64,000 nucleotides of DNA. It comes from an uncultured Bizionia sp. (GTDB lineage Bacteria > Bacteroidota > Bacteroidia > Flavobacteriales > Flavobacteriaceae). The stretch is taken from assembly GCA_947496215.1 (NCBI GenBank), contig CANMCF010000023.1:2111-66110 (forward strand). Direction: 5' to 3'. Positions 3,225 through 22,419 of the stretch are shown here, one piece after another. Below the pieces are notes generated by a model that was given only the letters and a program-made list of their open reading frames with translations, had not been told where the DNA came from and did not search any database. How positions within the stretch are numbered: the first letter of the stretch is position 1; each line of letters opens with the position of its first letter. Made by a program: the position numbers and the translations under genes.

Positions 3225-4037
3225 CTAATTTCTCAAAGCTTTGTTACTAATGGATTCCTTTAGTTCCAACAACTGGCTTTCCAATTCATGAAGCCTATCA
3301 TAGACATCCACAGGTTCTGGCATTTGTTTTGAGGCAAACATCGTGACGTACCACACTTCCATGATGTCCTCGATGTCTATGGTGTAGGTTGGATAGTTAC
3401 CATCCTTGTTGTCACTCTTTAGAATTAACTTTCCTCGTTTGTCTATTCTGTTTATTACACGTTTTAGGACAATCCCATCATTCTTGCTTACAATGACGTA
3501 GACACGTCCGTCTTTTACTTCATTCAAGTCCTCTACATATTTTCCAAAAACCAAATCACCATCGAAAAAAGTACGCACCATGGAGTTACCTTGTACCTCG
3601 AAGCACCTGAAGGTCCCATTGGTAAGTTGTGGCATATGGAAAGATGGCAATGTTTCTATGTATTCCGTGTCTCCATACCCATCCAAGTATCCCGCACGAG
3701 CTTTAATTGGAACATAAACGACGTTTTCTTCGTTGTCTTGGTTGACGGCTATAACTTGAGGTACTCCAGAATATGTTTGAATTTGAGGCACTTCATCTTT
3801 TAACATTATAGTACTTCTTCCAAAAAGGTAATCCGGATTTATATCGAATTCTTCAATTATTGCAGATAGGACATCATATCCAGGTTTTGTTTTTTTTCGA
3901 GAACCATCAGATTGAGGTCTTCCATTGACTATGCTATCTATGGTAGTTCCCGTAACTCCTATGCGTTTTGAAAAAGAAAAGTTGTTTAGTTGGAAGTGAT
4001 TAATAATCGCTTTTATTTTATCATCTATGGTCTCCAT
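3225..4037 (-). CDS. HTH + peptidase S24 (LexA / phage CI-like) transcriptional repressor
   Basis: N-terminal HTH-like region (FSFSKRIGVTGTTIDSIVNG). C-terminal S24 fold signature with the GNSM serine motif (VQGNSMVRTF) and a downstream Lys (IVLKRV). Divergent from the large gene at 4387. Confidence 0.8.
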   Translation of the reverse strand: METIDDKIKAIINHFQLNNFSFSKRIGVTGTTIDSIVNGRPQSDGSRKKTKPGYDVLSAIIEEFDINPDYLFGRSTIMLKDEVPQIQTYSGVPQVIAVNQDNEENVVYVPIKARAGYLDGYGDTEYIETLPSFHMPQLTNGTFRCFEVQGNSMVRTFFDGDLVFGKYVEDLNEVKDGRVYVIVSKNDGIVLKRVINRIDKRGKLILKSDNKDGNYPTYTIDIEDIMEVWYVTMFASKQMPEPVDVYDRLHELESQLLELKESISNKALRN

Positions 4038-4066
4038 AAGCTATTTCAAATTAAATTAAACTTTTT

Positions 4067-4110
4067 ACAGAATACACTGTAAAATGTTTGTTTTTATTTG
4101 TAAAATGTTT
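4067..4110 (+). promoter_or_regulatory. Bacteroidota-type promoter (-33 TTTG at 4077-4080, -7 TATATTTG at 4101-4108) overlapped by two direct TGTAAAATGTTT boxes (4069-4080, 4089-4100)
   Basis: The sequence ctgtaaaatgtttgtttttatttgtaaaatgttttatatttgta matches the TTTG/TAnnTTTG consensus with about 20 nt spacing. The same architecture recurs at 13090-13152 and 22420-22463. Confidence 0.6.
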
Positions 4111-4386
4111 TATATTTGTACTGCAATAATGTTGCTAATATACAAAATTATCTATAAATCAAACATTTGTATAAAAACAGAGCAACAATTTCTTGATTTT
4201 ACATAAAAGACGTCTTGAAAAATCAAAACGACGGATAACTATTCAAACATTTTTTTGAATAGGGTGGAGAGTTATGCCTTTCATTATTAAGGCTTTGTAT
4301 TGAGGTTTACCTGTTGGAAAAGCGAAATGAAGACAGTTCTTGATAACAAGAACCCAATAATGATTATAAATTTTAAAACAATTAGA
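4111..4386 (+). promoter_or_regulatory. Long conserved 5' leader of large gene 1, containing a 9-bp-stem hairpin (4239-4247/4254-4262) and a 9-codon uORF MPFIIKALY (4274-4303)
   Basis: About 235 nt (from 4158) are nearly identical to 13187-13418, with roughly 14 differences by eye. The coding sequence that follows is clearly more diverged than that. Confidence 0.5.
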
Positions 4387-7300
4387 ATGAGAAAAGAGAT
4401 TAAACAAAACCTATTTAGATTCGTAACCTTACGTAATCCACAATTAATAGACAAAAAGGAAAGCCATCCGGGATTTGTGTATCATCCAGACGATAATTAT
4501 GAAAGAAGTGTTTATTCTGAGGTGCTTTCAGAGACAGATGAAGCAAGTAAAATGGCCTTGTCAAAAGCAGTGTCAGATGAATTTGTTCCTTTGAAGGGAA
4601 GAAAAGGCGTAAAAGACTATAGGCAAACCATATATGACTTTTCATTATGGTTGATGCGTAACAAAAACCATTTGTCGTACAAAAGCATAAAATCAAATGC
4701 ACAAGGAGTAGATAATTTGACGACAGAAGCACTTTTGGTTATCTGGGACAATTTGATATATCAAACGATAAACAAGAAATCCGTCTATGTGAGGGAAGCT
4801 TTGATACAAGTCTTGATAGCAGATCAATTCTTTAAGGCGTTCAAAGATTTCTCTGCTGGTTTATCTGGAGATATCTTGTTCACGGAAGATCAAGAAAAGG
4901 AGTTTGTTCGTAGAGCCAATGCGAGTGTTGTAATTTCGAAGGCATTATTGGCTGCAACGACGATAAAACCAACAACAAAGGAAAAAAGGGTAAGCATATC
5001 TAAAATCAAAGAGCTTGAAAATGCTACTGATGTTGCGTTGGCAAAAGAGCGAGTACAAAGATACCAAACCTTGGTTGAAGAGTTGAAAAGTGTCGAGACC
5101 AAGTATAAAAATGAGAATCAAGTCAAGTATGAAAAAGCTTTGACTGACTATAACCAGACGATTGAAAACCTTTTGAAAAAGGTGGAACCGGTAATTGTAG
5201 AGGAAACCAATACCAAAGGAGAGGTTTCAAAAATAGAAACATATCCAAATTTGGATTTGCCAAAATTTGTTTACAACAAGGAAGCGGCAATCAACAAGGA
5301 ATATTTGACGAACAAGATTTCCAAAGACTCATTGGCTATTTTGGAGGAACAAGGATTGGATGTCCATAAGGATTTTTCAGAAGTGTTTGATGCAGTAAAA
5401 ACAAAAGTCAAAGATGAAAATGAAATTATTCTTGGCAAGGCGCCTAAACAAATAAAAACGCTCAAAGTAGGAGGGGCAAGCGTTACCGTCAATCCGAGTT
5501 TGGAATCCGAACCATATGACTATAACATTAGTCCATTGCATTCTATAAATCCAGGAGGGTTGAGAAATATCAACATGTTGATATTCAATTACGTTCAAGA
5601 TTCTCAAATAACGGATGTATCCTATAAGATAACTTTTAACAATGGTACGGAAAAAACAAGTACGGATTTCACCATATTCAATTCAGGAACAACGCAAATT
5701 TTAAGATTGTTTCCAAACTTGATTGCTTTTCCATTTGGGACGCTGTCATACACATTAGAAGGGGAGATCACATTGGAAGATCAAACAAAGCTTAGCTTTA
5801 GTAAGCTTGTAAAAATGAAAAGCAGACACAACTTTGGAATGTTTGATTTGCAAAATGATGATTCTGGTGACAACCCTGTGGATTCTCAGGTATTTGGAGT
5901 TACCAACCTGGGAATAGCCGACTTTAGACGTGTGGAACAAGAAGTATGCTGTTATGTGCCTGGGGAAGTGTCCCATATAGAAAACATCATGGCGCGAGAA
6001 TACAAAGAACGTGCAACGAGAAGTTTGAACAGCATAGAGACCACCAGTGAAGAAACCTCGGAGCGTGAAACGGAAAAACTTACAGATACCACAACAACGG
6101 AGCGTAATGAAATGCAAAGTGAAGTATCTTCTGTAATCAATGAAGACAAATCCAAGAACTATGGGGCAAACGCAAGTGTAAGTGGCAAGTTTGGTACCAC
6201 AAGTTTCAATGCAGGAGCACATTTCGATGCATCATCATCCAGTTCCACATCAAACTCCAACAGCCAAGCACAGACGTATGCACAGGAAGTCACGGAAAGA
6301 GCCATGGAGCGTATTGTGCAAAAGGTGAGCAGCAAGCGTACATCCCGTATATTGAAGGAGTTTGAAGAAAACAACAAGCATGGTTTCGATAACACGAAGG
6401 GAGACAAACATATTACAGGAGTATATCGTTGGGTGGATAAAATCTACAAGAATAAATTGATAAACTATGGTAAACGTCTAATGTATGAATTTGCTATTCC
6501 AGAACCTGCAAGATTCTTAAAAGATGCATTGATTAAAAAAGCAGACGATGGGCAATTGGATTCAGGTATCATTTTACCGGTAGAGCCAGTAAAACCAAGT
6601 ACGATAGGGTTGAATTCAGCGACCAACATAAATGAAAGCAGCTACCAAGGATTTGCATCCAAATATGCTGCCGAAGTTAGTGCTCCAGTAGATCAATACT
6701 TGAAAATTGGTCGCGCTTTCTCCAAAGACGATCAGAGTTATGATGCCAAAGGATATGCATTTAACGACATTGATGTTCCAGAAGGATATTATGCAACGTC
6801 GGGAACAGTTAATTGGGCTGTGATCCAGAAGAACAATTCGCATAAGTTCATGTCCATTGGGTTGGGAGATTCAAGACATTCTGTAATTGGAGGATCTGGA
6901 AGTACGTCTTTTTATAATTTTTCTGACATCTATAAAAAGAATATCCCATTCTCATTCAACACTTGGTACATTCACTCAGGGCATTTCAATGTTACGATAA
7001 ACTGTACAAGAAGCAATGAAGAGTACAAGCAATGGCAAAATGAAACATATACTGCCATCATGGATGCCTACAACGATCGTTTGCGTGAGTATAACGAAGC
7101 TATGGCCGCAAACAACATTGTTCCAGACAACGATGAGAAAGTTTCTTTCAATCCGGCCTTCAATAGAAGTCTTGAGAAAAAAGAGTTGAAACGCATTGCC
7201 ATCGAGTTGTTGATAGATCAAGACAGAGTATCCAAAAACGATTATGTGGACGATTCTTTGGTCAAGGTTAAAAACGATGAAGCCTTCCATGCACATGCGG

Positions 7301-8337
7301 CTACGGTGAAGTTCTTTGAGCAAGCCTTCGATTGGGACATCATGGCTTATGTCTTATATCCGTATTTCTATGCGAAGCAATCGGATTGGAAGACATTGTT
7401 CCAAGAAACAGACGTTGCAGATCCTATTTTCCAAGCCTTTTTACAGTCGGGTATGGCAAGAACGGTTGTTCCTGTGCGTCCAGGGTTCGAAGATGCGGTA
7501 AACTGGTACATGTCCACGGGCGAAATCTGGAATGGGGAAGGATTGATCACAGATCAAGACGATGATCTTTACGTGTCCATCTCAGAAGAAATGGAAACTG
7601 TGGAAGGAGTAGTGGAAGAGACTTGGGAAACACGTTTGCCTACGAGTTTGACGGTGATACAAGCTGGGTCCATAGGTTTGAATGTGGAAGGCCTACCATG
7701 CAATGTGGATTGTGATGACTTTGCGTTGTTCGATTCTGATGGAAACCCAGTATTGGATTCAAACGGAAACCCATTGACAAACAACCCTATAGAGCAAACC
7801 GATGTTTTGATTGGAGGAGCCTCTGGGGTAGGAGGAACTGGTACAGAGGAACTTAAAATGGTCGAGTTTACCTTTGTGGACAACACGGGAAGCAATTTTG
7901 CCAATATAGGGGAGTATGATGCAGAAGGAGCCTTTCCTTTGGTTTTCAAATGCATGGATCAAAAAATAGAGATTCAAAGAGAAGCCCAATGGCATGCCTC
8001 AAACAGCGTTGGTGTAATCTATCAGAAATTGGCGGAACAAGTGTCTTTGATTTCAGGGATTCAGGCAAATCAAGTCTTTAGTAAGAAAGGAGATCCATTG
8101 GGAATTAGATTCAAGGTAGAGATAGCCAAAATTCCAACATTCACATTTGAGAAATTCGTTGAAAAAGGAGCGTTCTCCGAACCAAACCACGATTTATTGA
8201 AGCTAATCATCAATGATACTGCTGTAAAGGTGATATCTCCTACCGTGTATTTGGATAGAATCTTCGATAAAGCAAATACAGGGCTCAAGGAAGCAGAATT
8301 AAACATCAATTTACCTATCGATAGGTTTTTGGTATGA
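4387..8337 (+). CDS. Giant protein 1 of an unrecognised family (about 1316 aa). No signal peptide. Mosaic of conserved and variable modules.
   Basis: Uninterrupted ORF 4300-8337; the track start is a TTG, and ATG 4387 (MRKEIKQNLFRFVTLRNPQLI) aligns with the paralog. Paralog of 13419-17081. I recognise no known domain signature. Confidence 0.85.
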   Translation: MRKEIKQNLFRFVTLRNPQLIDKKESHPGFVYHPDDNYERSVYSEVLSETDEASKMALSKAVSDEFVPLKGRKGVKDYRQTIYDFSLWLMRNKNHLSYKSIKSNAQGVDNLTTEALLVIWDNLIYQTINKKSVYVREALIQVLIADQFFKAFKDFSAGLSGDILFTEDQEKEFVRRANASVVISKALLAATTIKPTTKEKRVSISKIKELENATDVALAKERVQRYQTLVEELKSVETKYKNENQVKYEKALTDYNQTIENLLKKVEPVIVEETNTKGEVSKIETYPNLDLPKFVYNKEAAINKEYLTNKISKDSLAILEEQGLDVHKDFSEVFDAVKTKVKDENEIILGKAPKQIKTLKVGGASVTVNPSLESEPYDYNISPLHSINPGGLRNINMLIFNYVQDSQITDVSYKITFNNGTEKTSTDFTIFNSGTTQILRLFPNLIAFPFGTLSYTLEGEITLEDQTKLSFSKLVKMKSRHNFGMFDLQNDDSGDNPVDSQVFGVTNLGIADFRRVEQEVCCYVPGEVSHIENIMAREYKERATRSLNSIETTSEETSERETEKLTDTTTTERNEMQSEVSSVINEDKSKNYGANASVSGKFGTTSFNAGAHFDASSSSSTSNSNSQAQTYAQEVTERAMERIVQKVSSKRTSRILKEFEENNKHGFDNTKGDKHITGVYRWVDKIYKNKLINYGKRLMYEFAIPEPARFLKDALIKKADDGQLDSGIILPVEPVKPSTIGLNSATNINESSYQGFASKYAAEVSAPVDQYLKIGRAFSKDDQSYDAKGYAFNDIDVPEGYYATSGTVNWAVIQKNNSHKFMSIGLGDSRHSVIGGSGSTSFYNFSDIYKKNIPFSFNTWYIHSGHFNVTINCTRSNEEYKQWQNETYTAIMDAYNDRLREYNEAMAANNIVPDNDEKVSFNPAFNRSLEKKELKRIAIELLIDQDRVSKNDYVDDSLVKVKNDEAFHAHAATVKFFEQAFDWDIMAYVLYPYFYAKQSDWKTLFQETDVADPIFQAFLQSGMARTVVPVRPGFEDAVNWYMSTGEIWNGEGLITDQDDDLYVSISEEMETVEGVVEETWETRLPTSLTVIQAGSIGLNVEGLPCNVDCDDFALFDSDGNPVLDSNGNPLTNNPIEQTDVLIGGASGVGGTGTEELKMVEFTFVDNTGSNFANIGEYDAEGAFPLVFKCMDQKIEIQREAQWHASNSVGVIYQKLAEQVSLISGIQANQVFSKKGDPLGIRFKVEIAKIPTFTFEKFVEKGAFSEPNHDLLKLIINDTAVKVISPTVYLDRIFDKANTGLKEAELNINLPIDRFLV

Positions 8338-8718: not shown

Positions 8719-11088
8719 ATGAACAATACAATATACAATGAAACGATTAGAGATATGACACATGTGAGCAAGTTGGCGTCTCAAAAGTTTTATAATAGGA
8801 CGGCTCCGGAAATCTCACAAATCTACTTCCCACAATCTGACCAAAAAAAAATCAAGAACATCGTGGTTGAAACAGATGTGGATACAAGTGGCAAGCTGTT
8901 GGAATATGTGACGAAACGGGTGTATTTCTATGACAAGAACAACAACAACAAGCTGGATGATGATGAACAGTTGGCCTACAATGCTTACATATACACGTCA
9001 ACAGATGCCATAAAGTTGAAAGAGACATATGAAGTGGCCGAAGCAGGGGAAGACGATGTCTTGATTTTTGTAGAAGACAACCAAGGAGACGTAAGTTCCC
9101 AGTTTTGTAGAGCTAGAGTTGGAAAAAATGTTTTGAGCAATTTAAAGAATGCAGGCCATTTATACAACAACAGGAAACTTTTGGCAAGAATAAACGAACA
9201 TGCCCCTATCGATGAAGCCGTTTTAAATGAATTGTTGAAAAAGGGAAAGATAGAGAATACCACGTTGAAGGTGTTGGAATTCTTGTTTGCAGTTCCGGAT
9301 TATCTAGGCCCTTTCAGTCCAAATACTTTTGTAATGAAAGGCTTGGGAACTATATGTGAGGAGATTGCAAAGTTTATAAACAAGGCAAAAGTAGACGATT
9401 ACAGGTGGAACCCCCAAGCTAAAAAACGCAATGAGGATGGGACAGAAGATGAAACACATGAGTTTGCTCCTTTCCTGTTTCCCTTTGTGACAGAAGCATT
9501 GGATAGCATTGATGATTCCAAGGTAAATGGATATATGCAAAAATCCATTGCAGAATTGAAAAGTTTATACGCTTCTCAAGATCAAGCCATTCAAAATTAC
9601 GTTAAGAATGTGGATGTCGGCCGCTTGGGCAATGTGCCAATTTATTTTCCCTATGGAGGTTACGTGAACGTGGAAGTGGATTTGGTTCCGGATTCCATAG
9701 AACTGTTTTTGTTTAACAAGTACTTGCAAGTGAAAAAAGTGATAGATGCGGTATTCGAGAAATTGGAAGGGTTTGATTTCACGGACCTCATCAAAAAAGG
9801 GATTACCACGGCCAATGCATTCCTATGTGGTGTTTGGAATGGTTTGGTAGATGCCATTTCCGGTATTTTCGTGCTTTTGGAAATGGTGTTCAAAGCCGCC
9901 GCTGCAATGAATGATTTCAGGCAAAACTTCAGTACGGAATTTCCAATATTGTTGGAGTATATCGATAACTTTACGGAAGCATTGAGCAGTATAGATTTCA
10001 AAGAGCTCTATACACATCTAAAAACAAAGTTGTCAGATGCATCCATAGGAAGCATATCTTTGGAAACGATTGCTTATTTTAGTGGAGCGTTCATTGGGTT
10101 TGTAATAAGTTTGGTTATTGAAATAGTCGTAGGGATTCTATTTACAGGTGGTACGTTGAGTGTGGCAGCTGTAATAGAAAAGCTAGCGGCCATATTTTCA
10201 GGATTGCTCAGAGCAGGAGCCAAGGTTTTGAAAAAGACTTTTGATTTTTCAAAAAAATTGGTGGTCAACACCTTCAAGGGGTTCAAAAAGTTGTTGCAAG
10301 GAATGATAACTCTTTTGCGTAAGGGAACAGCTGGTTTCAAAGTAATGATAGATGACATATTCAAGGCATTCGGAATTTATGCCAAGGAAGCATTGAGTAA
10401 TGCAAATTCAGGATTGATACCGTTGTTGACAAAAGCAGAATTAAACCTCTACAAGAATTTGGCAAAAGCTTTTTTCAAGCCATTCAAAAAGTTGCTTTTA
10501 AGATATGCGGATAATGCAAGGGTGTTAAGGAGGTGGAGAAAGTTGAACCCTATGGATAGTCTATTAAAAGTTGATATAGACGAACTTTTAAGACTTAGGT
10601 CTTTAAATAAAAGAGGTTACAACAAAAATACTGCAACTATGAAAGCTCAAGTAGAGGTAAATGGAGAAGTTCTTGAGTTGGAATATAAAGCTTTGGCTGG
10701 TAATAAGACTAGTGGAGAAGGATTGCTTGGTAATGTGAATAAAGACTATATAGCTAAGCAATTAGGTATTAGTATAGAAGATTTAATGAAACATTTTGAT
10801 GATATTGCTGATGATGATTTGATAAGAAGGTTTCATGATAGTGAGCATAAGATCTTTAGTGCTTTCGATGATGATGTGTTGAAGCTTCAAACCCGTTATG
10901 GTAAAGAAAGTGTAAATGTTAAGAGTGTAAACTTTAAAACACTTTACGAACCATGTATATCTTGTAAACGTCAAATGATCATTCGTCAAGAAATGCACGA
11001 ATTTTCACTTAAAGTTCAGGCAATATTAATAAAAGGTAAGAATTACGCAAAAAATAATTCAGACTTACAAAGTTTAATGTTAAAATAA
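8719..11088 (+). CDS. Membrane-module protein with polymorphic C-terminal toxin domain (deaminase-like)
   Basis: Central hydrophobic helices (GVWNGLVDAISGIFVLLEMVFKAAAA; IAYFSGAFIGFVISLVIEIVVGILFTGG) are shared with 17278-19125. The C-terminus has FHDSEHKIF followed about 35 aa later by LYEPCISCKRQM, resembling the deaminase HxE...PCxxC layout. An immunity gene starts 6 nt downstream. Confidence 0.6.
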   Translation: MNNTIYNETIRDMTHVSKLASQKFYNRTAPEISQIYFPQSDQKKIKNIVVETDVDTSGKLLEYVTKRVYFYDKNNNNKLDDDEQLAYNAYIYTSTDAIKLKETYEVAEAGEDDVLIFVEDNQGDVSSQFCRARVGKNVLSNLKNAGHLYNNRKLLARINEHAPIDEAVLNELLKKGKIENTTLKVLEFLFAVPDYLGPFSPNTFVMKGLGTICEEIAKFINKAKVDDYRWNPQAKKRNEDGTEDETHEFAPFLFPFVTEALDSIDDSKVNGYMQKSIAELKSLYASQDQAIQNYVKNVDVGRLGNVPIYFPYGGYVNVEVDLVPDSIELFLFNKYLQVKKVIDAVFEKLEGFDFTDLIKKGITTANAFLCGVWNGLVDAISGIFVLLEMVFKAAAAMNDFRQNFSTEFPILLEYIDNFTEALSSIDFKELYTHLKTKLSDASIGSISLETIAYFSGAFIGFVISLVIEIVVGILFTGGTLSVAAVIEKLAAIFSGLLRAGAKVLKKTFDFSKKLVVNTFKGFKKLLQGMITLLRKGTAGFKVMIDDIFKAFGIYAKEALSNANSGLIPLLTKAELNLYKNLAKAFFKPFKKLLLRYADNARVLRRWRKLNPMDSLLKVDIDELLRLRSLNKRGYNKNTATMKAQVEVNGEVLELEYKALAGNKTSGEGLLGNVNKDYIAKQLGISIEDLMKHFDDIADDDLIRRFHDSEHKIFSAFDDDVLKLQTRYGKESVNVKSVNFKTLYEPCISCKRQMIIRQEMHEFSLKVQAILIKGKNYAKNNSDLQSLMLK

Positions 11089-11094
11089 TAAAAA

Positions 11095-11574
11095 ATGGAA
11101 ATACAATTTTTACAAAAATTAAAACAGAATCCTAAGATTGGTGTAAGAGAAATAAAAGGAGTTTTGGAATCAGAGATCTTTGAGGTAGAGAATAAACTTA
11201 ATATTAGTTTTCCAAAATCGTATAAAGAGTTTTTATTTTTAGCAGGAGAGTCTTGTGGAGCATTACAAATATTGGATACTACAGATTTGAAAACTATTTC
11301 TTCAGATTGGCATAAAGAAATACAAAAAGAAGAATTAGAATCTACAAGGACTGAATTTGATGGACCTTTTTGGTTGTTTGCTGAAAGCAATGGATGTGAG
11401 GTTTTTCATTTCTTTTATTTGGAAGATGGTATTGATGATCCAGTGGTATTTTCTGTAGACTATGATATATATGATGATAATAAACGTATAATTAAGACCA
11501 GTGATAAAAAATTCAGCGTATTTATTGAAAATAAGATAAAATCGGCTATAAGAATAGATAAACAAGGATATTAA
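11095..11574 (+). CDS. SMI1/KNR4 (SUKH-1) family immunity protein
   Basis: N-terminal pattern ESEIFEVENKLNISFPKSYKEFLFLAGESCG is typical of SMI1_KNR4. It lies immediately after the toxin gene. Confidence 0.8.
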   Translation: MEIQFLQKLKQNPKIGVREIKGVLESEIFEVENKLNISFPKSYKEFLFLAGESCGALQILDTTDLKTISSDWHKEIQKEELESTRTEFDGPFWLFAESNGCEVFHFFYLEDGIDDPVVFSVDYDIYDDNKRIIKTSDKKFSVFIENKIKSAIRIDKQGY

Positions 11575-12404: not shown

Positions 12405-12493
12405 TTGTAATGTCAATTTATTTTTTCAGAGATAAAATCATATAGAATCTGTAATATGGTTAAGCGTTATCGTATGATGACTTGTTGGATACA

Positions 12494-12976
12494 ATGAATA
12501 TAGAATATTTAAATAGTTTAAAAGAAAACTCAGAAATTGGAAATAGAAAAATTAAAGGAGTTTCCGAATCAGAGATAACAAGTGTAGAACAAAAACTAAA
12601 TATTGCTTTCCCAAAATCATATAGGGAGTTTTTGTTTTTGGCTGGGGAATCTTGTGGGGCTTTGCCTTTATTGGAATCTGCAGATTTAAAGACATTGTCA
12701 TCAGATTTTTACAAGGAGGTTTTGGAAGAAGACATGAAAGACACCAACACTGTTATAGAGCGACCATTTTGGGTTTTTGCAGACAGTATTGGGGACCAAG
12801 GATTTTGGTTTTTCTATCTTGATGAAGAATCAGAAGATCCGCAAACCTATTATTATGCATATAAAGAAACTGAGCCTTATGAAGCGGTCATTGGTTCTCA
12901 TGAATTGATCTTTAGTGAGTTTATTGATGGAAGAATAGACTTTGGTAATCAAATAGAAAAAGAAGGTATTTGGTAA
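12494..12976 (+). CDS. SMI1/KNR4 (SUKH-1) family immunity protein, paralog of 11095-11574
   Basis: ESEITSVEQKLNIAFPKSYREFLFLAGESCGALPLL aligns with the first SUKH protein. The track start at 12482 is a TTG; ATG 12494 is more likely. Confidence 0.8.
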   Translation: MNIEYLNSLKENSEIGNRKIKGVSESEITSVEQKLNIAFPKSYREFLFLAGESCGALPLLESADLKTLSSDFYKEVLEEDMKDTNTVIERPFWVFADSIGDQGFWFFYLDEESEDPQTYYYAYKETEPYEAVIGSHELIFSEFIDGRIDFGNQIEKEGIW

Positions 12977-13089: not shown

Positions 13090-13152
13090 AAACATTTTAC
13101 AAAACAAATAGTGTTGTAGTTGCTTTTGTTTGTAAAATGTTGTATATTTGTA
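13090..13152 (+). promoter_or_regulatory. Second copy of the promoter/operator. The upstream TGTAAAATGTT box is inverted here (13091-13101). A direct box at 13131-13142 abuts the -7 element TATATTTG at 13143-13150.
   Basis: aaacattttacaaaacaaa ... tttgtttgtaaaatgttgtatatttgta forms a 17-18 nt inverted repeat around an approximately 19-nt spacer. Confidence 0.55.
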
Positions 13153-13418
13153 ATGTAATAAGGCTGCTAATGTGCTGAAAAACTATAAATCAAACATTTG
13201 TATAAAAACAAAGCAGCAATTTCTTGATTTTACATAAAAGACGTCTTGAAAAATCAAAAACGACGGATAACTATTCAAACATTTTTTTGAATAGGGTGAA
13301 GAGTTATGCCTTTTATTATTAAGGCTTTGTATTAAGTTAAACCTGTTGGAAAAGCGAAACGATGACAGTTCTTAAAGACAAGAACCTAATAATAATTATA
13401 AATTTTAAAACAATTAGA
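13153..13418 (+). promoter_or_regulatory. Second copy of the conserved 5' leader, including the same hairpin and the uORF MPFIIKALY (13306-13335)
   Basis: Near-identity to 4111-4386. Within the uORF the only differences are ttc to ttt (synonymous) and tga to taa (stop to stop). Confidence 0.5.
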
Positions 13419-16400
13419 ATGAGCAAAGAGATTAAACAAAACCTATTTAGGTTTGTAACCCTACGTAATCCACAATTAATAGAAGACAAAAAAGAACATC
13501 CAGGTTTTGTATATCATCCAAGTGAAGATTATGACGGGAGTGCATACAGAACCATGCTTACAGAAACAGATGTTGCAAGTAAAAAAGCATTGTCTAAAGT
13601 CGTTTCGGATGAATTCACCCCTTTAAAAGGTCGTAAAGGTGTAAAGGACTATTCACAAGCAATGTATGACTTTTCGTTGTGGTTGATGCGCAATAAGAAC
13701 CATTTGTCTTATCAAAGCATAAAATCCAATGCAGAAGGAGTTGGCAATTTGACAACAGAGGCACTTTTGGTTGTTTGGGACAATTTAATATATCAAACAA
13801 TAAACAAAGAATCCGTTTATGCGCGAGAAGCTTTGATACAAGTTTTAATTGCAAATCAATTTTTAAAGGCATTTAAAGGTCTTTCAATAGGAATGGAAGA
13901 ATTTACAGATGACACTGAAAAGGAGTTTGTGCGAAGAGCAAATGCAAGCGTTGTAATTTCGAAATCCTTATTTGTTGAGAATGGAGAGAAAAGTCAATCT
14001 AAAAAAAGATTGACAGAATCTCAAGAAAAAGCAATGCTTAAAGTGATTGAAACAGAAGAAGCCAAGGAGAATTTGGCAGCTTATAAAAAATTGAATGCTG
14101 AGCTTAAAGGAATAGAGATAGGTTACAACAAGGAATCTCAAAGATCATACGATAATACTTTAAAAACGCACAAAGCATCTATAGCTAAAATATTGGCGTC
14201 AACAGAACCTGTAGTAGTTAGTGAGACAGACCCAAGAACAGGAGTTGTTAAAAAAGTTAAAACATATCCAAACTTGGAACTGCCATCGTTTAACTTTGAA
14301 AACACAAAAGCAATAGATTCCAAATACTTGAAAGAGCGATTGTCTCCAGAATCTATGCAGGTTTTCGATGCAGTAGAGTTAGGGGTTTACGATGATTTTT
14401 CTGAAGTGAACAACGCTATTAATAATCAAATTCAGCTTGTAAATCAAACGATTCTAAATAACGATTCTTCAACATCAGGAACGGTATTGGTTGGGGGAAC
14501 CACAACTACCGTAAGTGAAAACATGGCAACTTTAGACCCTTATTGCTTTTTTGTTTCTAGGTTGAGTTCAATAGGAAACCCCGGATTGACCATGTTTTTA
14601 GGAACTGGGTACTTGGGAGCTTTAGCATCGAATGCGTCTTACACTTTGGAAAACTTGGATTCTAACATAAAGTATGAAGGAACAGTAATACAAACAAATT
14701 CTAGTTTCAACAATACAAGTACGCGTTTGTTTTTTCCAATAGCTCATCCTATAGACAATAATGGGAGTTATCGTTTTTCGGGAAAATTCACATTGGATAA
14801 TGGCGTGACATTAAGTTTCGATGTTACAAACGACGTATCTAAACGAGGTGTGAGATTTAATGGTTGTTGTGATGCCGTAAAAGGAGATGATACTACAGAT
14901 CCAGCAGGAGGAGAGGTTAAGCCACAAGTGTTTGGAGTCACCAATTTAGGTATTGCGGATTTCAGACGTGTAGAACAAGAGGTGTGCTGCTATGTGCCTG
15001 GAGAAGTGTCACACATAGAAAATATCATGGCACGTGAATACAAAGAACGTGCAACAAGAAGTTTGAACAGTGTAGAAACTACCAGTGAGGAAACGACAGA
15101 ACATGAAACAGAAAACTTAACAGATACAACTACAACCGAGCGCAATGAAATGCAGAGTGAAGTTGCTTCCGTTATTAATGAGGATAAATCTCAAAACTAT
15201 GGAGCAAATGCAAGTGTGAGCTATAGTCCTACAAAAGCATTGTCCATAAATGCAGGAGGTTATGCGGATTTTTCATCATCAAGCTCTACGTCAAACTCCA
15301 ATAGTCAAGCTCAAACCTATGCACAAGAAGTGACTGAGAGAGCAATGGAGCGTATTGTTCAAAAAGTAAGCAATAAACGTACTTCTCGTATTTTAAGAGA
15401 GTTCGAAGAGAATAACAAGCATGGTTTTGACAATACCAAAGGCGATAAGCATATTACAGGTGTGTACCGTTGGGTTGATAAGATTTACAAGAATAAATTA
15501 ATCAATTATGGTAAGCGTTTAATGTATGAATTTGCGATACCGGAACCAGCTAAATTTTTTAAGGAGGCATTATGGAAAAAGTTCAAAAACGATGAATTGG
15601 GGGCTGAGGTTGTATTGCCTATAAAACCAGCTCATCCAAGAGACATTGGTGTGACTTCTCCAACGAGTATTATAGAGTCGACTTACCAATTAAAGGCGGC
15701 TGAATACAATGCAGAGGTTATTGCAGCTCCAGAAAAATACGATTATGTCGGTACGTCGTTTACTAAATCGCAACAAGGTGGAGACGGCGGAGATAACACC
15801 AATAAATCTGCCAAAGATGTCATTAAAATCCCAAAAGGATATAAAAGCATTGCAGCAAAAACAACAGGAAGACAAAAAAATGGTGCAGTTTTAATTTCTG
15901 TTGCCGGTGAAGACTTTCCTGTTAATAGTTCGTACTATTCTACAATAACTCCTCATTTGGACGAATTACCTGTTTCTGTTTCTTTTGAATGGAACTGGGT
16001 GACGAATGTAAATATAGATGTAAAGTGTGAGAGAACGGATGGAGCCTACAAACAATGGCAAAATGAGACGTTCAATGCTATCATGGAAGCTTATAATGAC
16101 CGTTTGCGAGAGTATAACGAATCGATTATTGCAAATGAGATCAACCAGAATGCCAGTGGTGAAAAATTAAAATTCAATCCATTGTTCAATAGAAGTATAG
16201 AAAAGAAAGAGTTAAAACGTATTGCGATTGAATTGATCATTGATCAAGACAGGATTTCCAAAAACAATTATAATGCAATCAATGATGCTACAGGTTTGTC
16301 AAAAGTGATGAAAACACAAGGTTTGCAAGATCATGCAGCTACCGTTAAATTCTTTGAGCAAGCATTCGATTGGGATATCATGTCATACATCTTTTATCCA

Positions 16401-17081
16401 TATTTTTATGCTAATGAAGAGAATTGGAAAGACTTGTTTCAGTCTCAAGATGCAGCAGATCCGTTATTTCAAGGTTTCTTGCAATCCGGTATGGCTAGAA
16501 CAATTGTTCCTGTTCGCCCAGGGTTTGAAGACGCAATGAACTGGTATATGTCTACTGGAGAAATCTGGAATGGTCAAGGATTGATCACGGATCAAGATGA
16601 TGACCTTTATGTGTCCATTGCAGAAGAAATGCAAACCGTGGAAGGAGAAGTGGAAGATACGTGGGAAACACGTTTGCCAACCAATTTAACTGTAATACAA
16701 GCAGGTTCAATAGGTTTAAATGTGGAAGGGTTGCCATGTAACATTGATTGCGACGATTTTGCGTTGTTTGATTCTGATGGCAAGCCAATTTTGGATGACA
16801 ATGGAAAGCAGGTGACTGAAAACCCGATAGAGCAAACCAATACAATGGTTGGGGGCGAGCTTGATCCAACCGAGTTGGAAAAGGTACAAAGCCGCTTGAT
16901 CGAAAATGTAGACATAGACAATGGTTACCTTAAACTGACCACAGAAGGAAGCAACAGGCAGACAGTTGCACAAATTTCCGTGGAAGCAATCAAACGAGCC
17001 ATAGATGAGTCGGTAGCTACTACGACGACCAGAACGTCTACCCTTGAAAAAGGCTCTGAAACAACTACGGCTTCAAGATAA
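13419..17081 (+). CDS. Giant protein 2 of the same unrecognised family (about 1220 aa)
   Basis: Uninterrupted ORF 13362-17081. ATG 13419 (MSKEIKQNLFRFVTLRNPQLI) aligns with protein 1. The N-terminal, core and C-proximal modules are shared, while two internal regions and the tail differ. Confidence 0.85.
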   Translation: MSKEIKQNLFRFVTLRNPQLIEDKKEHPGFVYHPSEDYDGSAYRTMLTETDVASKKALSKVVSDEFTPLKGRKGVKDYSQAMYDFSLWLMRNKNHLSYQSIKSNAEGVGNLTTEALLVVWDNLIYQTINKESVYAREALIQVLIANQFLKAFKGLSIGMEEFTDDTEKEFVRRANASVVISKSLFVENGEKSQSKKRLTESQEKAMLKVIETEEAKENLAAYKKLNAELKGIEIGYNKESQRSYDNTLKTHKASIAKILASTEPVVVSETDPRTGVVKKVKTYPNLELPSFNFENTKAIDSKYLKERLSPESMQVFDAVELGVYDDFSEVNNAINNQIQLVNQTILNNDSSTSGTVLVGGTTTTVSENMATLDPYCFFVSRLSSIGNPGLTMFLGTGYLGALASNASYTLENLDSNIKYEGTVIQTNSSFNNTSTRLFFPIAHPIDNNGSYRFSGKFTLDNGVTLSFDVTNDVSKRGVRFNGCCDAVKGDDTTDPAGGEVKPQVFGVTNLGIADFRRVEQEVCCYVPGEVSHIENIMAREYKERATRSLNSVETTSEETTEHETENLTDTTTTERNEMQSEVASVINEDKSQNYGANASVSYSPTKALSINAGGYADFSSSSSTSNSNSQAQTYAQEVTERAMERIVQKVSNKRTSRILREFEENNKHGFDNTKGDKHITGVYRWVDKIYKNKLINYGKRLMYEFAIPEPAKFFKEALWKKFKNDELGAEVVLPIKPAHPRDIGVTSPTSIIESTYQLKAAEYNAEVIAAPEKYDYVGTSFTKSQQGGDGGDNTNKSAKDVIKIPKGYKSIAAKTTGRQKNGAVLISVAGEDFPVNSSYYSTITPHLDELPVSVSFEWNWVTNVNIDVKCERTDGAYKQWQNETFNAIMEAYNDRLREYNESIIANEINQNASGEKLKFNPLFNRSIEKKELKRIAIELIIDQDRISKNNYNAINDATGLSKVMKTQGLQDHAATVKFFEQAFDWDIMSYIFYPYFYANEENWKDLFQSQDAADPLFQGFLQSGMARTIVPVRPGFEDAMNWYMSTGEIWNGQGLITDQDDDLYVSIAEEMQTVEGEVEDTWETRLPTNLTVIQAGSIGLNVEGLPCNIDCDDFALFDSDGKPILDDNGKQVTENPIEQTNTMVGGELDPTELEKVQSRLIENVDIDNGYLKLTTEGSNRQTVAQISVEAIKRAIDESVATTTTRTSTLEKGSETTTASR

Positions 17082-17277
17082 CGTTTGGCACATTTCCTAA
17101 TGCTGGGAAAATAAATGTTTAATCCATCTTACTTGTCATTTTAGGTAACCTCAAACTTAATCAGCAGGTTCCAAAATAAGATTCCTCATTCTTTTTTTCA
17201 AAGGAGAATGAGGAAACAGGTAAGGTGTGTTTAAATGTTGCCAGACAAATGTTTAACAATTGAAAAAAGAATAAATA

Positions 17278-19125
17278 ATGAGTAATATAAATGAGAACAA
17301 TCCATTGGAGGGAATCGATTTCCCGGATGGTGTTTCAAATGCCTCTAACCTCTTTGCTGCAAATGCACCGATTTCGAATTCCATATTTCAAACTTGTACT
17401 ACAGATAATTTTTTGAATTACTTCTTTCAAGGAGCAGAGCGTAAGGATGTCGTGGAAAAAATGGGAGCTTTTGGAGGCAAGATAGTAGAAGAAACTTATG
17501 TTGGAGGAGGAATCGAAAAAGTATATAGGACAAACCGATATGTCAAAAAAGATGGAATTAGGCAAGAAGCGGGAACAGTGGTTTTGATTATTGGTACAGA
17601 TGGAGCAGAAATACTGAAGACCCATAATGGCTTGGTGCCAAAAAAAGGGGAACAAATTATCCTTCTGGAAAAAAATGACAATGATTTCTCTGGAGCCATA
17701 ATGCGTTTTAAACAGGATACAAGTATAAACATCAACAAATCCGCAGTTTCATTGACCAGTTTCATCAATAAACGCTATGAGATCACATTGGATCAATTTA
17801 AAGACATTGTCAATAGGGTAGACAACACCTCTGCTCTGGAAAGTTTGGTGATCTCGATACTTGACAATACCAAAACAGTTAGAACCGTGGCAACGGTAGG
17901 TTTGGCATTGGCAGGTAAAATGATAGACTCAGCCATAAAGGGGTTTGATGAATTTGTGGATGGTTCGCTAAAGATCGATCCTAGTTTTTGGAACCCGGAC
18001 CATAAGGATTTCAAACAGAAGGTAAATGTAACATCAGAACAAATAAAGGAGTTAACAGCCTCTTTGGATGTTATTGGTGGAAAAGTGGATGGATTGAGTT
18101 TTAAAAGCGTGGTTGCTGCCGGAGGAGCTGCATCTGTGGCAGCAGGACCGTTTGCACTTGCATTTCTGGCTCCCGGAGCAGTGGCATACAAATTATATTC
18201 CGAAGAAATAGAATTGGTGTTCGATAAGATGAAGGCTCAAATAAAAAGCGCCCTAAAGACTCTTAAGGAATTTTTGAACAATACGTTGGAAAGCCTGATA
18301 AAAGGCATAAATACGACAATAAATGTCGTATTGGCTTTTATTTCCGGAGTTTGGTCAGGTTTGGTGGACTTTGTTGCAGACATCATAAGGCTCTTCCTGT
18401 TCTTGGTGAAATTGGCTGTGGCCGGTGCAGGAAAAGTAAATGAGGTGATTGGTGTTAAAGAAGGGGATTCCAAAGCATTTGTAAAGAACTTTGGGTTGTA
18501 CTATAACCTCATCTTGGAAAACATAGATAATACGTTGCAAGGTTTGGGAGCAGTAAACTGGTTGGAATTCTTCAAGGAATCCTTTTTAAAGTTCGAACTG
18601 TTGAAAATACGTATCCTAGCCAAGATCTTCGATAAGGCCGGGAAGACTCTGGACGGATTGAATTATGCTGAGTGGGCCTATTACATAGCCTATGCCATAC
18701 TATTGATTGCAGATATCATATTGTCCTTCTTCTTTCCTGGTCTGTTGGCAACCAAAATAGCCAAATTAGGCAAGGCAGGAAAGGTGTTGGCGAAAATCAT
18801 TGTAGCTGTGCAGGATGCTATGGCACTTGTATTTAAAATAGGGTTTAAGACAGTTGCCTTTGGTGTGAAAAGCATTATAGGTGTTTGGTCCAGCATTGTA
18901 GGTATTTTAAGAAAGGGAACTAAAAAACTCTTGGAGTTTTTGGATGTAGTGTTCGCTAATCTGGCAAAGGTGTTCGATGAGGTTATTACTGGGGTGTCTA
19001 AAGCGGCAGAAAAGGCTTACAAGTCTTTGTTTAATGTAACTGAACGAAGTTTGATAGATAAGTTGGGCTTAAAGGTAAGTAAATACGAGGATGACATATT
19101 AACACTTTGTCCGATAGGCAAATAA
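17278..19125 (+). CDS. Membrane-module protein, paralog of the central part of 8719-11088
   Basis: LAFISGVWSGLVDFVADIIRLFLFLVKLAVAGAG and GILRKGTKKLLEFLDVVF align with GVWNGLVDAISGIFVLLEMVF and LLRKGTAGFKVMIDDIF of the 789-aa protein. The N- and C-termini are unrelated. Confidence 0.7.
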   Translation: MSNINENNPLEGIDFPDGVSNASNLFAANAPISNSIFQTCTTDNFLNYFFQGAERKDVVEKMGAFGGKIVEETYVGGGIEKVYRTNRYVKKDGIRQEAGTVVLIIGTDGAEILKTHNGLVPKKGEQIILLEKNDNDFSGAIMRFKQDTSININKSAVSLTSFINKRYEITLDQFKDIVNRVDNTSALESLVISILDNTKTVRTVATVGLALAGKMIDSAIKGFDEFVDGSLKIDPSFWNPDHKDFKQKVNVTSEQIKELTASLDVIGGKVDGLSFKSVVAAGGAASVAAGPFALAFLAPGAVAYKLYSEEIELVFDKMKAQIKSALKTLKEFLNNTLESLIKGINTTINVVLAFISGVWSGLVDFVADIIRLFLFLVKLAVAGAGKVNEVIGVKEGDSKAFVKNFGLYYNLILENIDNTLQGLGAVNWLEFFKESFLKFELLKIRILAKIFDKAGKTLDGLNYAEWAYYIAYAILLIADIILSFFFPGLLATKIAKLGKAGKVLAKIIVAVQDAMALVFKIGFKTVAFGVKSIIGVWSSIVGILRKGTKKLLEFLDVVFANLAKVFDEVITGVSKAAEKAYKSLFNVTERSLIDKLGLKVSKYEDDILTLCPIGK

Positions 19126-19138
19126 AACCGATACATGT

Positions 19139-19960
19139 ATGAAACAGACAATAAAAAAACTGTGCTTGTATTGGCAAGCCAAAAAAGTAGAAGCCAAAGC
19201 AATTAAAAAAATTGTTGATTTACCAATGTTAAAAGTGGTATATAAAAAAGATACTAGTATAACATTGGGTTGTTTAACGACAGGAATGTCCAATAGCAAA
19301 CCGACTTTGTCATGGAATAGTGTGGAACTATTGGTCAAAAACAAAACTGGAGATGTCAGGGATTTTTTTAAAAAGGTTTATAAGGAATCCAAGGCCAAAA
19401 ATATCTCTCCACAAAAGTATTTGGATGAGTTGGCTGAATTAACTGAAAAAGCTAATTTACGTAGGATAGCTTTAGGGAAATGGGCTAATAAGTTTGATTC
19501 TAGTTTTTTCAATCATCTGAGCGGAGATGTTGGGACTGAGAAAATAACAATTTTTTTTAAAGAATTAGTTTATGTTGCCCCTAAAGGGCAAGGAGGACAT
19601 TGGCTTAATAAATTTTTAAAAGTAGATCAGGTTACTTTTCCTCCAGGAATTAGCAAGGTTAGTCAAATAGCAGATGATGTTCCTTTTAAAGCAAAAGTTA
19701 CCATTAAATCTGCAAAAGGTAAAGTATTTCCAAAAACAGCAGAGTCTTCTATGTTTCCTAAAAATTGGAGTAAAACAAGAATACAGGAAGAAATTGCTTG
19801 GGTTTATGAAAATACTGTAGTTAAAAATATTAATAGAAAAATAAAAGGACCAAACGATTTATTTAATAAGTTTGAAGGAGATACAACAACTGGGTTTAAA
19901 GTATTGTTAGAGGTTGATGACTTAGGAAAAATTGTTAATGCATATCCAATTATTATTTAA
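19139..19960 (+). CDS. Stand-alone toxin with C-terminal bacterial EndoU-like RNase domain
   Basis: GQGGHW ... SSMFPKNWSKTRIQEEIAWVYEN ... GKIVNAYPI matches my recollection of the EndoU_bacteria pattern (GGH ... FFP..WS ... I.taYP). Confidence 0.6.
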   Translation: MKQTIKKLCLYWQAKKVEAKAIKKIVDLPMLKVVYKKDTSITLGCLTTGMSNSKPTLSWNSVELLVKNKTGDVRDFFKKVYKESKAKNISPQKYLDELAELTEKANLRRIALGKWANKFDSSFFNHLSGDVGTEKITIFFKELVYVAPKGQGGHWLNKFLKVDQVTFPPGISKVSQIADDVPFKAKVTIKSAKGKVFPKTAESSMFPKNWSKTRIQEEIAWVYENTVVKNINRKIKGPNDLFNKFEGDTTTGFKVLLEVDDLGKIVNAYPIII

Positions 19961-19970
19961 AAAAACAAAA

Positions 19971-20327
19971 ATGAATTATAAGTTTTATAAAGAAGAAATA
20001 GACGGAATTATTACTTTAGGCGTAATGCCTGAAAAAAAAGAGTATAATATATTGTTTAGGTTTGGTAACTATGGTTGGACATCATTAAAGGCGCAGGAAA
20101 TAATAGATGGAGTTCAAGAAAGCAAAGAAAAACCTAAAGGAGAAGAATATGTTTGGGCAAACGAGGATGTTACATTGTATTCTAATGAAAATGGAATATT
20201 GTTGATTGATGACATCTCTCAAAGAGCAGGAGAAAAGAATCCTGAAAAATTGAATTTTGGCATTGGTACTGACGAGTTTATTGTATTTATGCAAGAGTTT
20301 AAGTTGTTCATTGAGGAGAATAGTTAA
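19971..20327 (+). CDS. Small cytoplasmic protein, candidate cognate immunity protein for the EndoU-like toxin
   Basis: 118-aa ORF (MNYKFYKEEIDG) starting 10 nt after the toxin stop. The track start at 19932 overlaps the toxin gene and is less likely. Confidence 0.5.
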   Translation: MNYKFYKEEIDGIITLGVMPEKKEYNILFRFGNYGWTSLKAQEIIDGVQESKEKPKGEEYVWANEDVTLYSNENGILLIDDISQRAGEKNPEKLNFGIGTDEFIVFMQEFKLFIEENS

Positions 20328-21871: not shown

Positions 21872-22372
21872 ATGTTATTGGCTCTAGATGTCCATTATAA
21901 AGAGAATTATGCGAAAAGCGTTGGAGTGATTTTCAATGCCACAGAGGGCACTTTGCAAGCTAGCCTCATAGAGATCATAGATGAGGTTGAGGATTATGTG
22001 TCTGGACAATTCTACAAACGCGAACTGCCATGTTTGTTGAAGGTTGTGGATAAGGTAAATTTGACGACTATTGATGCAATTGTCGTAGATGGTCATGTAT
22101 ATGTGGACAATGATTGCAATCTGGGGTTGGGCGGACACTTGTACAAGGCATTGGATGAACAAATACCAATTATTGGGGTTGCCAAACGCTCTTTTCATGA
22201 CACTGAGGCTGTTTCAAAGGAGGTCTTCAAAGGGAAAAGTAAGAATCCGCTTTATGTTTCTGCGATTGGCATGGATTTACAGGATGCCATAAGCATTATC
22301 TCTCAGCTTCATGGGGAGCATAGAATACCAACGATTCTCAAGGCGTTGGACGATATTACAAAAGAAGCATGA
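21872..22372 (+). CDS. nfi: Endonuclease V family protein
   Basis: Aligns by eye with E. coli Nfi: LDVHY vs ADVGF, YVSGQFYKRELPCLL vs YIPGFLSFREYPALL, VVDGH...IPIIGVAKRSF vs FVDGHG...VPTIGVAKKRL, and NPLYVS vs NPLFIA. Confidence 0.75.
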   Translation: MLLALDVHYKENYAKSVGVIFNATEGTLQASLIEIIDEVEDYVSGQFYKRELPCLLKVVDKVNLTTIDAIVVDGHVYVDNDCNLGLGGHLYKALDEQIPIIGVAKRSFHDTEAVSKEVFKGKSKNPLYVSAIGMDLQDAISIISQLHGEHRIPTILKALDDITKEA

Positions 22373-22419
22373 TTGCAAGATTCTGTCTTAAAACAAATTA
22401 CAAAAAACAATAAATTAAT

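Follow-up and report, generated by a model that had tools for sequence, protein, structure and literature searches.

A 64,000-nucleotide (nt) stretch of DNA from an uncultured Bizionia sp. (Flavobacteriaceae; contig CANMCF010000023.1), referred to here as the window, carries repeated copies of the 12-mer TGTAAAATGTTT at three promoters. Two of these promoters precede toxin operons that begin with genes for very large proteins, Big1 and Big2, and the third precedes a lysis cassette consisting of a CHAP-domain hydrolase gene and a holin gene (CHAP-holin). The copies, termed boxes here, are probably operators of a small conserved regulon, bound by Rep, a 270 amino acid (aa) helix-turn-helix (HTH)-S24 repressor encoded divergently from Big1, and would gate the two toxin operons and the lysis cassette. 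The same phased set of boxes, kept in about ten genera beside the gene for a self-cleaving LexA/CI-like repressor, points to a colicin-like switch by which the cell would "make toxin, then burst". The protein family to which Rep belongs is known; new are the motif architecture, the regulon, the probable face-to-face layout of the rep and Big1 promoters and a complementarity between the toxin and lysis leaders.

Phased boxes at three promoters

A scan of the window gives four exact copies of TGTAAAATGTTT and, at the same promoters, two copies with one mismatch and two with two mismatches. With one mismatch or less, seven matches are found in the 64 kb against 1.92 expected, a number reached in 0 of 100 dinucleotide shuffles, and six of the seven are situated in the three promoter regions. 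The existence of the boxes and their enrichment are established. At two mismatches the window-wide count is that of chance (29 vs 26.9 expected), so the signal lies in clustering and not in loose matches. The core 8-mer TGTAAAAT is mildly enriched (14 vs 7.7). A weight-matrix scan of the 64-kb window shows no further multi-box site; its other matches are six isolated single ones, three of these inside open reading frames.

Unit 1, upstream of Big1, displays the boxes A (−), B (+) and C (+), spaced by 20 and 21. Box A1 (TGTAAAAAGTTT, 4058–4069, −, one mismatch) is inverted and lies 41 bp upstream of C1. The 3′ end of box B1 (4078–4089, +, exact) supplies the −33 TTTG (4087–4090) of the Big1 promoter, and box C1 (4099–4110, +, exact) abuts the −7 element TATATTTG (4111–4118). 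In unit 2, upstream of Big2, the inverted box A2 (13090–13101, −, exact) is again 41 bp upstream of box C2 (13131–13142, +, one mismatch), which abuts TATATTTG at 13143–13150; box B is degenerate. Unit 3, upstream of CHAP-holin, has an A′/B/C layout with spacings of 30 and 22. Here the inverted box A3 (TGTAATTTGTTT, 22391–22402, −, two mismatches) is 52 bp upstream of C3, box B3 (22421–22432, +, exact) carries a −33 TTTG at 22430–22433, and box C3 (TGCAAAATGATT, 22443–22454, +, two mismatches) overlaps the −7 element TATATTTG (22454–22461) by 1 nt. There are only eight perfect promoters of the form TTTG-N19–21-TAnnTTTG in the window, and those of units 1 and 3 are among them.

A sequence-only reading of the same DNA had proposed 12-mer boxes, two at each of these promoters. 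The boxes it saw are real and non-random, the downstream box does abut the −7 element at all three promoters, and in the direct-repeat units the upstream box carries the −33 TTTG as described. Its coordinates for unit 1 were about 10 nt off, however; the copies placed at 4069 and 4089, 20 nt apart, actually start at 4078 and 4099, 21 nt apart, and the third, inverted box was missed in both unit 1 and unit 3. It had also argued that the similarity is not simple duplication. Big1 and Big2 are 59% identical except at their C-termini and their leaders of about 260 nt are nearly identical, thus the likeness of the unit 1 and unit 2 promoters reflects paralogy and the argument stands for unit 3 only, which is independent and the sole such instance in the window. 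Nor is unit 3 free of other shared sequence, since 15 nt at 22464–22478 are the reverse complement of 4312–4326 and 13344–13358, as discussed below.

The comparative set consists of 80 orthologous rep loci from about 10 genera of the Flavobacteriaceae (1.53 Mb; rep and up to 10 kb on each side). Rep is 76–94% identical in Olleya, Lacinutrix, Psychroserpens, Winogradskyella, Dokdonia, Kordia, Aquimarina, Tenacibaculum and others, and rep, the divergent Big operon and CHAP-holin are syntenic in most of the loci. In Kordia the Big genes are found elsewhere, and in a few genomes CHAP-holin directly adjoins rep. Box matches with one mismatch or less number 251, and 191 of these are at rep, Big or CHAP-holin promoters. 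The 450 nt preceding rep hold 106, and a further 62 and 23 are upstream of CHAP and of relocated Big genes, respectively. The other 60 are close to the approximately 45 implied by the shuffled-window rate. The box thus behaves as a specific cis-regulatory site and not as a generic promoter feature, in agreement with the sequence-only reading; within the window and the 80 loci it marks only rep, Big, CHAP-holin and a 51-aa open reading frame of Kordia.

An alignment of the rep–Big intergenic region from 39 genomes shows as conserved blocks box A, which is among the best conserved, the −33 TGTTTG, and box C with its −7 element, which is kept in nearly all of the genomes. Two further blocks, GCTAATATACAAAA and AATCAAACATTTGT, form element E, described below. 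Among 99 distinct box-C/−7 promoters, direct partner boxes are found at 21/22 bp from box C in 43 of 50 cases and inverted partner boxes at 40–43 bp in 58 of 59, which corresponds to two and four turns of the helix. CHAP promoters and stand-alone Kordia Big promoters show the A/B/C layout as well, and the AAACAAATTACAAAA block present in box A3 is kept upstream of CHAP in other genera. Phasing of the boxes and their conservation across genera are likewise established, and the comparison among genomes lends much strength to what the sequence-only reading had observed.

Four of the related genomes (loci L027, L044, L046 and L060) keep rep and its flanks and show no trace of a segment of about 20 kb extending from the Big operons to the holin gene (window 4038–24300). 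This absence marks the segment as an island that is gained or lost, with rep at one end and a gene for a 607-aa protein (24322–26145) at the other.

An unbiased scan of viral contigs and metagenomes with the 20-nt box-C/−7 composite gave a single viral match, a chance hit with no related genes, and 30 metagenomic matches. Four of the 30 are rep–Big loci with an inverted partner box. The 26 others, one of which is a Gram-positive-like pilin/sortase contig, show no partner box at 21/22 or 40–43 and by a rough estimate are about the number expected by chance in a very large AT-rich collection. Thus the diagnostic feature is the phased array and not the single box, and an operator that is a widespread phage or Bacteroidota motif was rejected on these counts.

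Rep and its relation to the boxes

Rep is encoded at 3225–4037 on the reverse strand and is assigned as an HTH (XRE/CI-type)-S24 repressor by Pfam, PHROG and family homology. The S24 domain is recognized by Pfam Peptidase_S24 (E-value = 5e-10); the HTH match is weak (HTH_19, E-value = 6e-4, below the Pfam cut-off). PHROG 4, a transcriptional repressor family, matches with an E-value of 2e-22, the PHROG 4 and PHROG 8 repressor profiles span residues 1–80, and some Rep orthologues carry precomputed PF12844 or PF01381 domains. In the 80 orthologues the KARAG|Y cleavage site, GNSM and VLKRV are invariant, the Ser/Lys dyad is intact and a C-terminal helix is conserved. Residues 101–263, comprising the S24 domain and the C-terminal helix, share a 40% identity (E-value = 2e-41) with WP_025606010.1 of Pontibacter actiniarum, a non-canonical LexA validated by electrophoretic mobility shift assay (EMSA) (PMC8565304). 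Family membership and catalytic residues are established, and by sequence Rep is a specialised paralogue within the Bacteroidetes non-canonical LexA family.

SOS-type regulators of the Bacteroidota were identified only in 2021, and the study left many paralogues, including Rep orthologues, without a motif or regulon (Sanchez-Osuna et al., NAR 2021, PMC8565304). Its Table S10 lists for Tenacibaculum mesophilum F9Y86_RS07385 a candidate dyad, AACATAAAATGTT (AACA-TAAAA-TGTT), 13 nt from the start codon (PMC8565304). The same dyad precedes the start codon in the Tenacibaculum rep orthologues L040, L050, L052, L055 and L064; the match shows that the Rep family had already been catalogued among the CTAA-group regulators that lack the CTAA-N5-TTAG motif. 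The listed dyad is an unvalidated, clade-specific guess. Three members of the family tested by EMSA bind dyad-N5-dyad palindromes (PMC8565304). The known family motifs, CTAA-N5-TTAG and (T)GGA-N5-TCC(A), were considered as Rep sites and rejected: neither CTAA-N5-TTAG nor GGA-N5-TCC is present in 4038–4300, and elsewhere in the window there are only chance-level matches, none near rep.

The candidate promoter of rep, element E, is situated at 4134–4169 on the reverse strand and consists of CAAATGTTTG-N17-TATATTAGC, with a −33 TTTG at 4160–4163 and a −7-like TATATTAG at 4135–4142. The layout is that of the Big and CHAP promoters, with a −33 to −7 spacing of 17–18, shorter than the usual 19–21. 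Element E precedes rep in 71 of the 80 loci, and in 65 its distance to the ATG is about 90–100 nt. The four island-less loci and Kordia keep it next to rep. A stand-alone Kordia Big promoter lacks it, and the copy in unit 2 is decayed (13166–13200). It is therefore tied to rep and not to Big. Rep is probably transcribed from about 4130 (−), facing a Big1 start at about 4123–4125 (+), and the placement of the rep promoter inside 4038–4130 by the sequence-only reading is probably wrong in detail. The face-to-face layout would favour mutual exclusion of the rep and Big1 promoters as well as a roadblock type of autoregulation.

In 16 Kordia loci a 51-aa HTH-like open reading frame (MKRSKELLDKRKKF...ISEKTIYNILKQ; 9576–9731, −, in L051, and 15 other loci) is found divergent from rep. 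It occupies a Cro-like position, with the same box promoter and element E ahead of it, and has no counterpart in the window.

The boxes are attributed to Rep because of their strict co-localisation with rep across genera and because no other DNA-binding protein is detectable in the island; the sequence-only reading had likewise named the S24 protein as the only nearby regulator. The attribution also draws on the near invariance of both the HTH and the boxes and on a correlated change in Dokdonia, where the boxes read TGCAAAAT (T to C) and the HTH has SK(E/Q)IGV in place of SKRIGV (R to E/Q).

Several observations weigh against operators bound by Rep. The main reason for caution is that the box is asymmetric, unlike the dyad-N5-dyad sites of the family (PMC8565304), so that Rep would have to bind in another way. 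Many genera do not conserve box B, whereas nearly all keep the −33 TTTG. The covariation of HTH and box comes from one lineage. The four island-less loci keep rep with no boxes upstream, thus autoregulation through the boxes is not universal. The Kordia 51-aa HTH protein beside rep could act at these promoters too, and the single composite is also present in the 26 unrelated metagenomic contexts.

Some of these observations would fit boxes that serve as operators or activator sites of another regulator, encoded elsewhere or by an uncharacterised gene of the island, with Rep acting at some other sequence, for instance element E or a short dyad close to the start codon of rep. The asymmetry of the box against the palindromes bound by tested family members points this way, as do the AACA dyad proposed for T. 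mesophilum and found in five Tenacibaculum loci, the conserved 51-aa HTH frame of Kordia, and the several island open reading frames with no assignable function. The AACA dyad, however, is limited to one Tenacibaculum subclade, whereas boxes A and C occur in nearly all genera; the 51-aa frame is found only in Kordia, the island shows no other DNA-binding domain, and Rep is the sole regulator syntenic with the boxes across genera. We regard another regulator as unlikely on balance.

Still less probable is an intrinsic promoter module, for instance an extended −33/−7 or UP-like element belonging to a strong housekeeping promoter, that was spread among the promoters of the island by duplication or gene conversion and has no dedicated binder. 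It would account for the −33 TTTG within box B and the −7 element abutting box C, for the same AAATGTTTG...TATATTxG layout in element E, for the duplication of units 1 and 2, and for the composite in 26 unrelated metagenomic sequences. But box A is inverted, lies upstream of the −33 at a fixed 40–43 bp and is among the most conserved blocks, and a sigma-factor element would not function when inverted. No other promoter in the window has the box, apart from the six isolated matches with three in open reading frames; the 60 matches outside the three promoter classes in the 80 loci occur at about the rate predicted by shuffling; and the unrelated metagenomic matches have no partner box at 21 or 41 and are about as many as chance would give. 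The CHAP promoter, moreover, keeps its boxes across genera with no other homology in the same orientation. A chance cluster of an AT-rich word in AT-rich intergenic DNA would agree with the two-mismatch and core 8-mer counts in the window, yet it has next to no probability given that 0 of 100 shuffles match the count at one mismatch or less and that promoters of about 10 genera, orthologous or not, keep the sites with fixed spacing.

For Rep as the regulator of the boxes, the mechanism that we infer covers the binding by Rep and its stoichiometry, the start sites, induction by DNA damage and release of toxin by lysis. Two or three boxes would be spaced by two and four helical turns along the same face of the double helix, with box C filling the spacer beside the −7 element, box B covering the −33 and the inverted box A upstream. 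Cooperative occupancy would occlude the near-consensus housekeeping promoters of the Big1 and Big2 operons and of CHAP-holin; that the conserved C-terminal helix mediates higher-order assembly on the phased sites is speculation. Self-cleavage of Rep upon DNA damage is expected since it keeps the Ala-Gly site and the Ser/Lys dyad. DNA damage, through activated RecA (RecA*), would then lead to self-cleavage of Rep and derepression of toxin synthesis, followed by lysis, and the sacrificed cell would release its toxins as with colicins and pyocins. The rep promoter would face the Big1 promoter with the three boxes in the early transcribed region of rep, so that bound Rep may repress its own gene by roadblock and promoter interference and not through mere overlap, the rep and Big1 promoters being mutually exclusive. 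The regulated genes fit a toxin-release system, since they include EndoU, a deaminase-like C-terminus, SUKH genes, CHAP and holin.

Toxin operons, lysis cassette and leader complementarity

Big1 (1316 aa; 4387–8337, +) is the first gene of toxin operon 1, with its start taken from the annotated homologue P0121 and a conserved ATG. It is followed by a gene for a 789-aa protein (8719–11088, +) with a deaminase-like C-terminus (Toxin-deaminase, E-value = 1.8e-4, below the Pfam cut-off), a SUKH immunity gene (11095–11574, +; SMI1_KNR4/SUKH, E-value = 9e-9) and a second SUKH immunity gene (12482–12976). A single box-like site, TGTAATATGGTT, is found at 12450–12461, about 20 nt upstream of the second SUKH gene; it could be an internal immunity promoter, or chance. 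Toxin operon 2 (13419–20327, +) consists of Big2 (1220 aa; 13419–17081, +), a 615-aa protein, an EndoU nuclease toxin (19139–19960, +) and a 131-aa open reading frame. The deaminase-like C-terminus, the two SUKH genes, the 615-aa protein and EndoU downstream of the Big genes identify these operons as polymorphic-toxin loci. The toxic modules differ between the operons, being the C-terminus of the 789-aa protein in one and a separate EndoU gene after the 615-aa protein in the other, and candidate immunity genes (SUKH or small open reading frames) accompany these secondary polymorphic toxins (8719–11574, 12482–12976 and 17278–20327). The 789-aa and 615-aa proteins bear a weak resemblance to tape-measure proteins in their middle parts.

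Members of the Big family are 1,150–1,320 aa long with a variable C-terminus and a near-invariant stretch, VCCYVPGEVSHIENIMAREYKER..., predicted as long beta-hairpins. All 89 Big homologues found are annotated as hypothetical, and Big yields no sequence match in Pfam, NCBIfam, PHROG or PDB. Several other open reading frames of the island also show no significant family in Pfam, NCBIfam, PHROGs or PDB sequence searches. AlphaFold modelling of a Big homologue, with a mean pLDDT of 65.6, gives low-confidence long beta-hairpins at 500–700. In Foldseek the model comes closest to beta-pore-forming toxins and translocases (iota Ib pore, CDTb, aerolysin), at TM-scores of 0.12 or less. The predicted resemblance to beta-pore-forming toxins is a weak hint. 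Judged from its sequences, Big is a large, widespread and uncharacterised family that is flagged here.

The lysis cassette consists of a CHAP-domain peptidoglycan hydrolase (22567–23061, +; Pfam CHAP, E-value = 4e-8) and a phage-type holin (23069–23503, +; Phage_holin_4_1, E-value = 3e-11), which bears out the name given to this unit in the sequence-only reading. PHROG matches of the cassette are tail lysozyme, endolysin and holin. An endonuclease V gene (21872–22372) directly precedes the lysis promoter, both in the window and in many other genera.

Phage relatives are found only for Rep and the lysis genes. Rep shares a 38% identity over 91% of its length with a protein of Elizabethkingia phage TCUEAP3, and weaker matches are repressors of Leeuwenhoekiella and Bacteroides phages. 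The rep gene, however, adjoins rnpA and an S41 protease gene in a conserved chromosomal synteny, and these neighbours make its context chromosomal and not that of a prophage. A prophage origin of the locus was rejected on this synteny and on the lack of any match to Big in 50,697 phage records.

A conserved hairpin of the Big1 leader holds a 15-nt element, TGTTGGAAAAGCGAA (4312–4326, +), in its loop region, and the Big2 leader carries a copy at 13344–13358 (+). Both are complementary to the 5′ end of the lysis mRNA, where the reverse complement, TTCGCTTTTCTAACA, is found at 22464–22478 (+), near +1 of the CHAP-holin transcript and just after the −7 element. The complementary element is 13–21 nt long across genomes. 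In all genera examined the toxin and lysis copies are both kept, and within a genome they covary, e.g. Tenacibaculum has GCAA in both copies, and in L028 and L058 both copies carry the same 2-nt insertion. Over a 14-nt core in 22 within-genome pairs there are 292 Watson-Crick cells, 14 differences that keep G.U/U.G pairing, one incompatible transition and one transversion, the events being not all independent and representing roughly 7–8 lineages. At a double-stranded protein site both kinds of transition should be about equally frequent. Since the differences are nearly all G.U-compatible (14 vs 1), a trans RNA–RNA contact is favoured, and the comparison suggests that the toxin leader pairs with the 5′ end of the lysis mRNA. 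Pairing of this kind might link lysis to the expression of toxin. The alternative is an orientation-independent DNA site. An invertible promoter as the meaning of the inverted 15-mers was considered and rejected, with no recombinase domain detected and Big and CHAP co-directional in all loci.

Single-sequence folds often place the motif in the loop of a CTGTT...AACAG hairpin, and a second hairpin after it shows compensatory stems (GTTCTT/AAGAAC, TTCC/GGAG, GCTC/GAGC). The Big leader as a whole (4125–4386, about 260 nt) displays several conserved hairpins, at 4241–4261 (TATTCAAACA...TTGAATA), at 4275–4296 (ATGCCTT...AAGGCTT) and two around 4310–4360, the last with compensatory changes in its stem between genera. 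An Rfam scan of the whole window gives one tRNA only and nothing in the leaders. RNAduplex applied to whole leaders is uninformative (z = −1.5) and produces long AU-rich spurious duplexes, and RNAalifold gives no consensus for the leader hairpins, the variable stems having been misaligned by MAFFT. In the CHAP leader, at 22540–22556 and in other loci, a conserved CTG(A/G)TTAAGAAAA block is similar to the motif of the Big leaders. Pairing of this block with the 5′ end of its own transcript could give a competition or anti-antisense mechanism.

A wider reading, which we hold tentatively and think doubtful as a whole, is a conserved chromosomal suicide toxin-release island of marine Flavobacteriaceae with two layers of control. 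One would be a dedicated LexA-family paralogue working through phased asymmetric operators and a switch of face-to-face promoters. The other would be a trans RNA–RNA contact between a hairpin loop of the toxin leader and the very 5′ end of the lysis mRNA, by which lysis is coupled to the build-up of toxin mRNA or follows it. The Big proteins would be new large secreted toxins or translocases.

Comparison with known systems

The non-canonical LexA proteins of the Bacteroidetes resemble Rep in combining a CI/XRE-type HTH with an S24 autopeptidase and a C-terminal helix (PMC8565304). Their operators are 13-bp dyads, in contrast to the asymmetric 12-bp boxes in phased arrays at the Rep locus, and their targets are error-prone polymerases and repair genes, in contrast to the toxin operons and the lysis cassette marked by boxes in the loci covered here. 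If the proposed role of Rep is true, one of the 2021-era paralogues gains a site architecture unlike the dyads of its family and a role, the gating of polymorphic-toxin operons and a domesticated phage lysis cassette. This role would be shared by marine genera of ecological importance, Tenacibaculum (including fish pathogens), Kordia, Dokdonia, Winogradskyella, Psychroserpens and Olleya, and a possible mRNA–mRNA coupling of toxin and lysis genes would be flagged as well.

The switches of phages P2 and 186 have face-to-face lytic and lysogenic promoters, and the P2 C repressor binds direct repeats about 22 bp apart. The Rep locus appears similar in its face-to-face promoters, as judged from conservation, with start sites a few nt apart, and in direct-repeat operators about two helical turns apart that straddle the core promoter. 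Unlike Rep, P2 C and 186 CI are not S24 autopeptidases, and unlike P2 and 186 the Rep locus is not a prophage, as it has no structural, replication or integration genes.

In "type 10 secretion", toxins are exported in a holin/endolysin-dependent manner, e.g. Serratia chitinase and Yersinia Tc toxins. In these systems, as at the Rep locus, large chromosomal toxin genes are accompanied by a domesticated phage lysis cassette, but the regulators and the cargo differ. We know of no type 10 system that is gated by a shared set of S24-repressor operators.

Colicin operons have tandem LexA boxes and a lysis gene, and the pyocins of Pseudomonas have an S24 repressor, PrtR, and a holin/lysin. A search of the available literature gave nothing relevant on the present module, and to our knowledge no colicin-like switch has been described in this bacterial group. 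Shared with the Rep locus are a self-cleaving S24-type repressor, several operators over the promoter (an operator role that is inferred here), toxin and immunity genes, and a dedicated lysis function by which a damaged cell would release toxin by dying. The corresponding features in the window are boxes B and C over the −33 and the spacer, toxin and immunity genes, and CHAP-holin with the same boxes. Big shows no homology to colicins, pyocins or bacteriocin release proteins (BRP), and there are no tail or sheath genes in the window. The Rep locus differs in belonging to another phylum with −33/−7 promoters. Rep is a dedicated paralogue and not the main LexA of the cell, its control appears direct with no intermediate activator such as the PrtN of pyocins, the lysis genes have their own promoter and are not downstream in a toxin operon as in colicin operons, and the main cargo is an uncharacterised family of proteins of about 1,200 aa. 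If the boxes do act through Rep as proposed, colicin-like altruistic lysis, well known in proteobacteria, becomes directly testable in flavobacteria.

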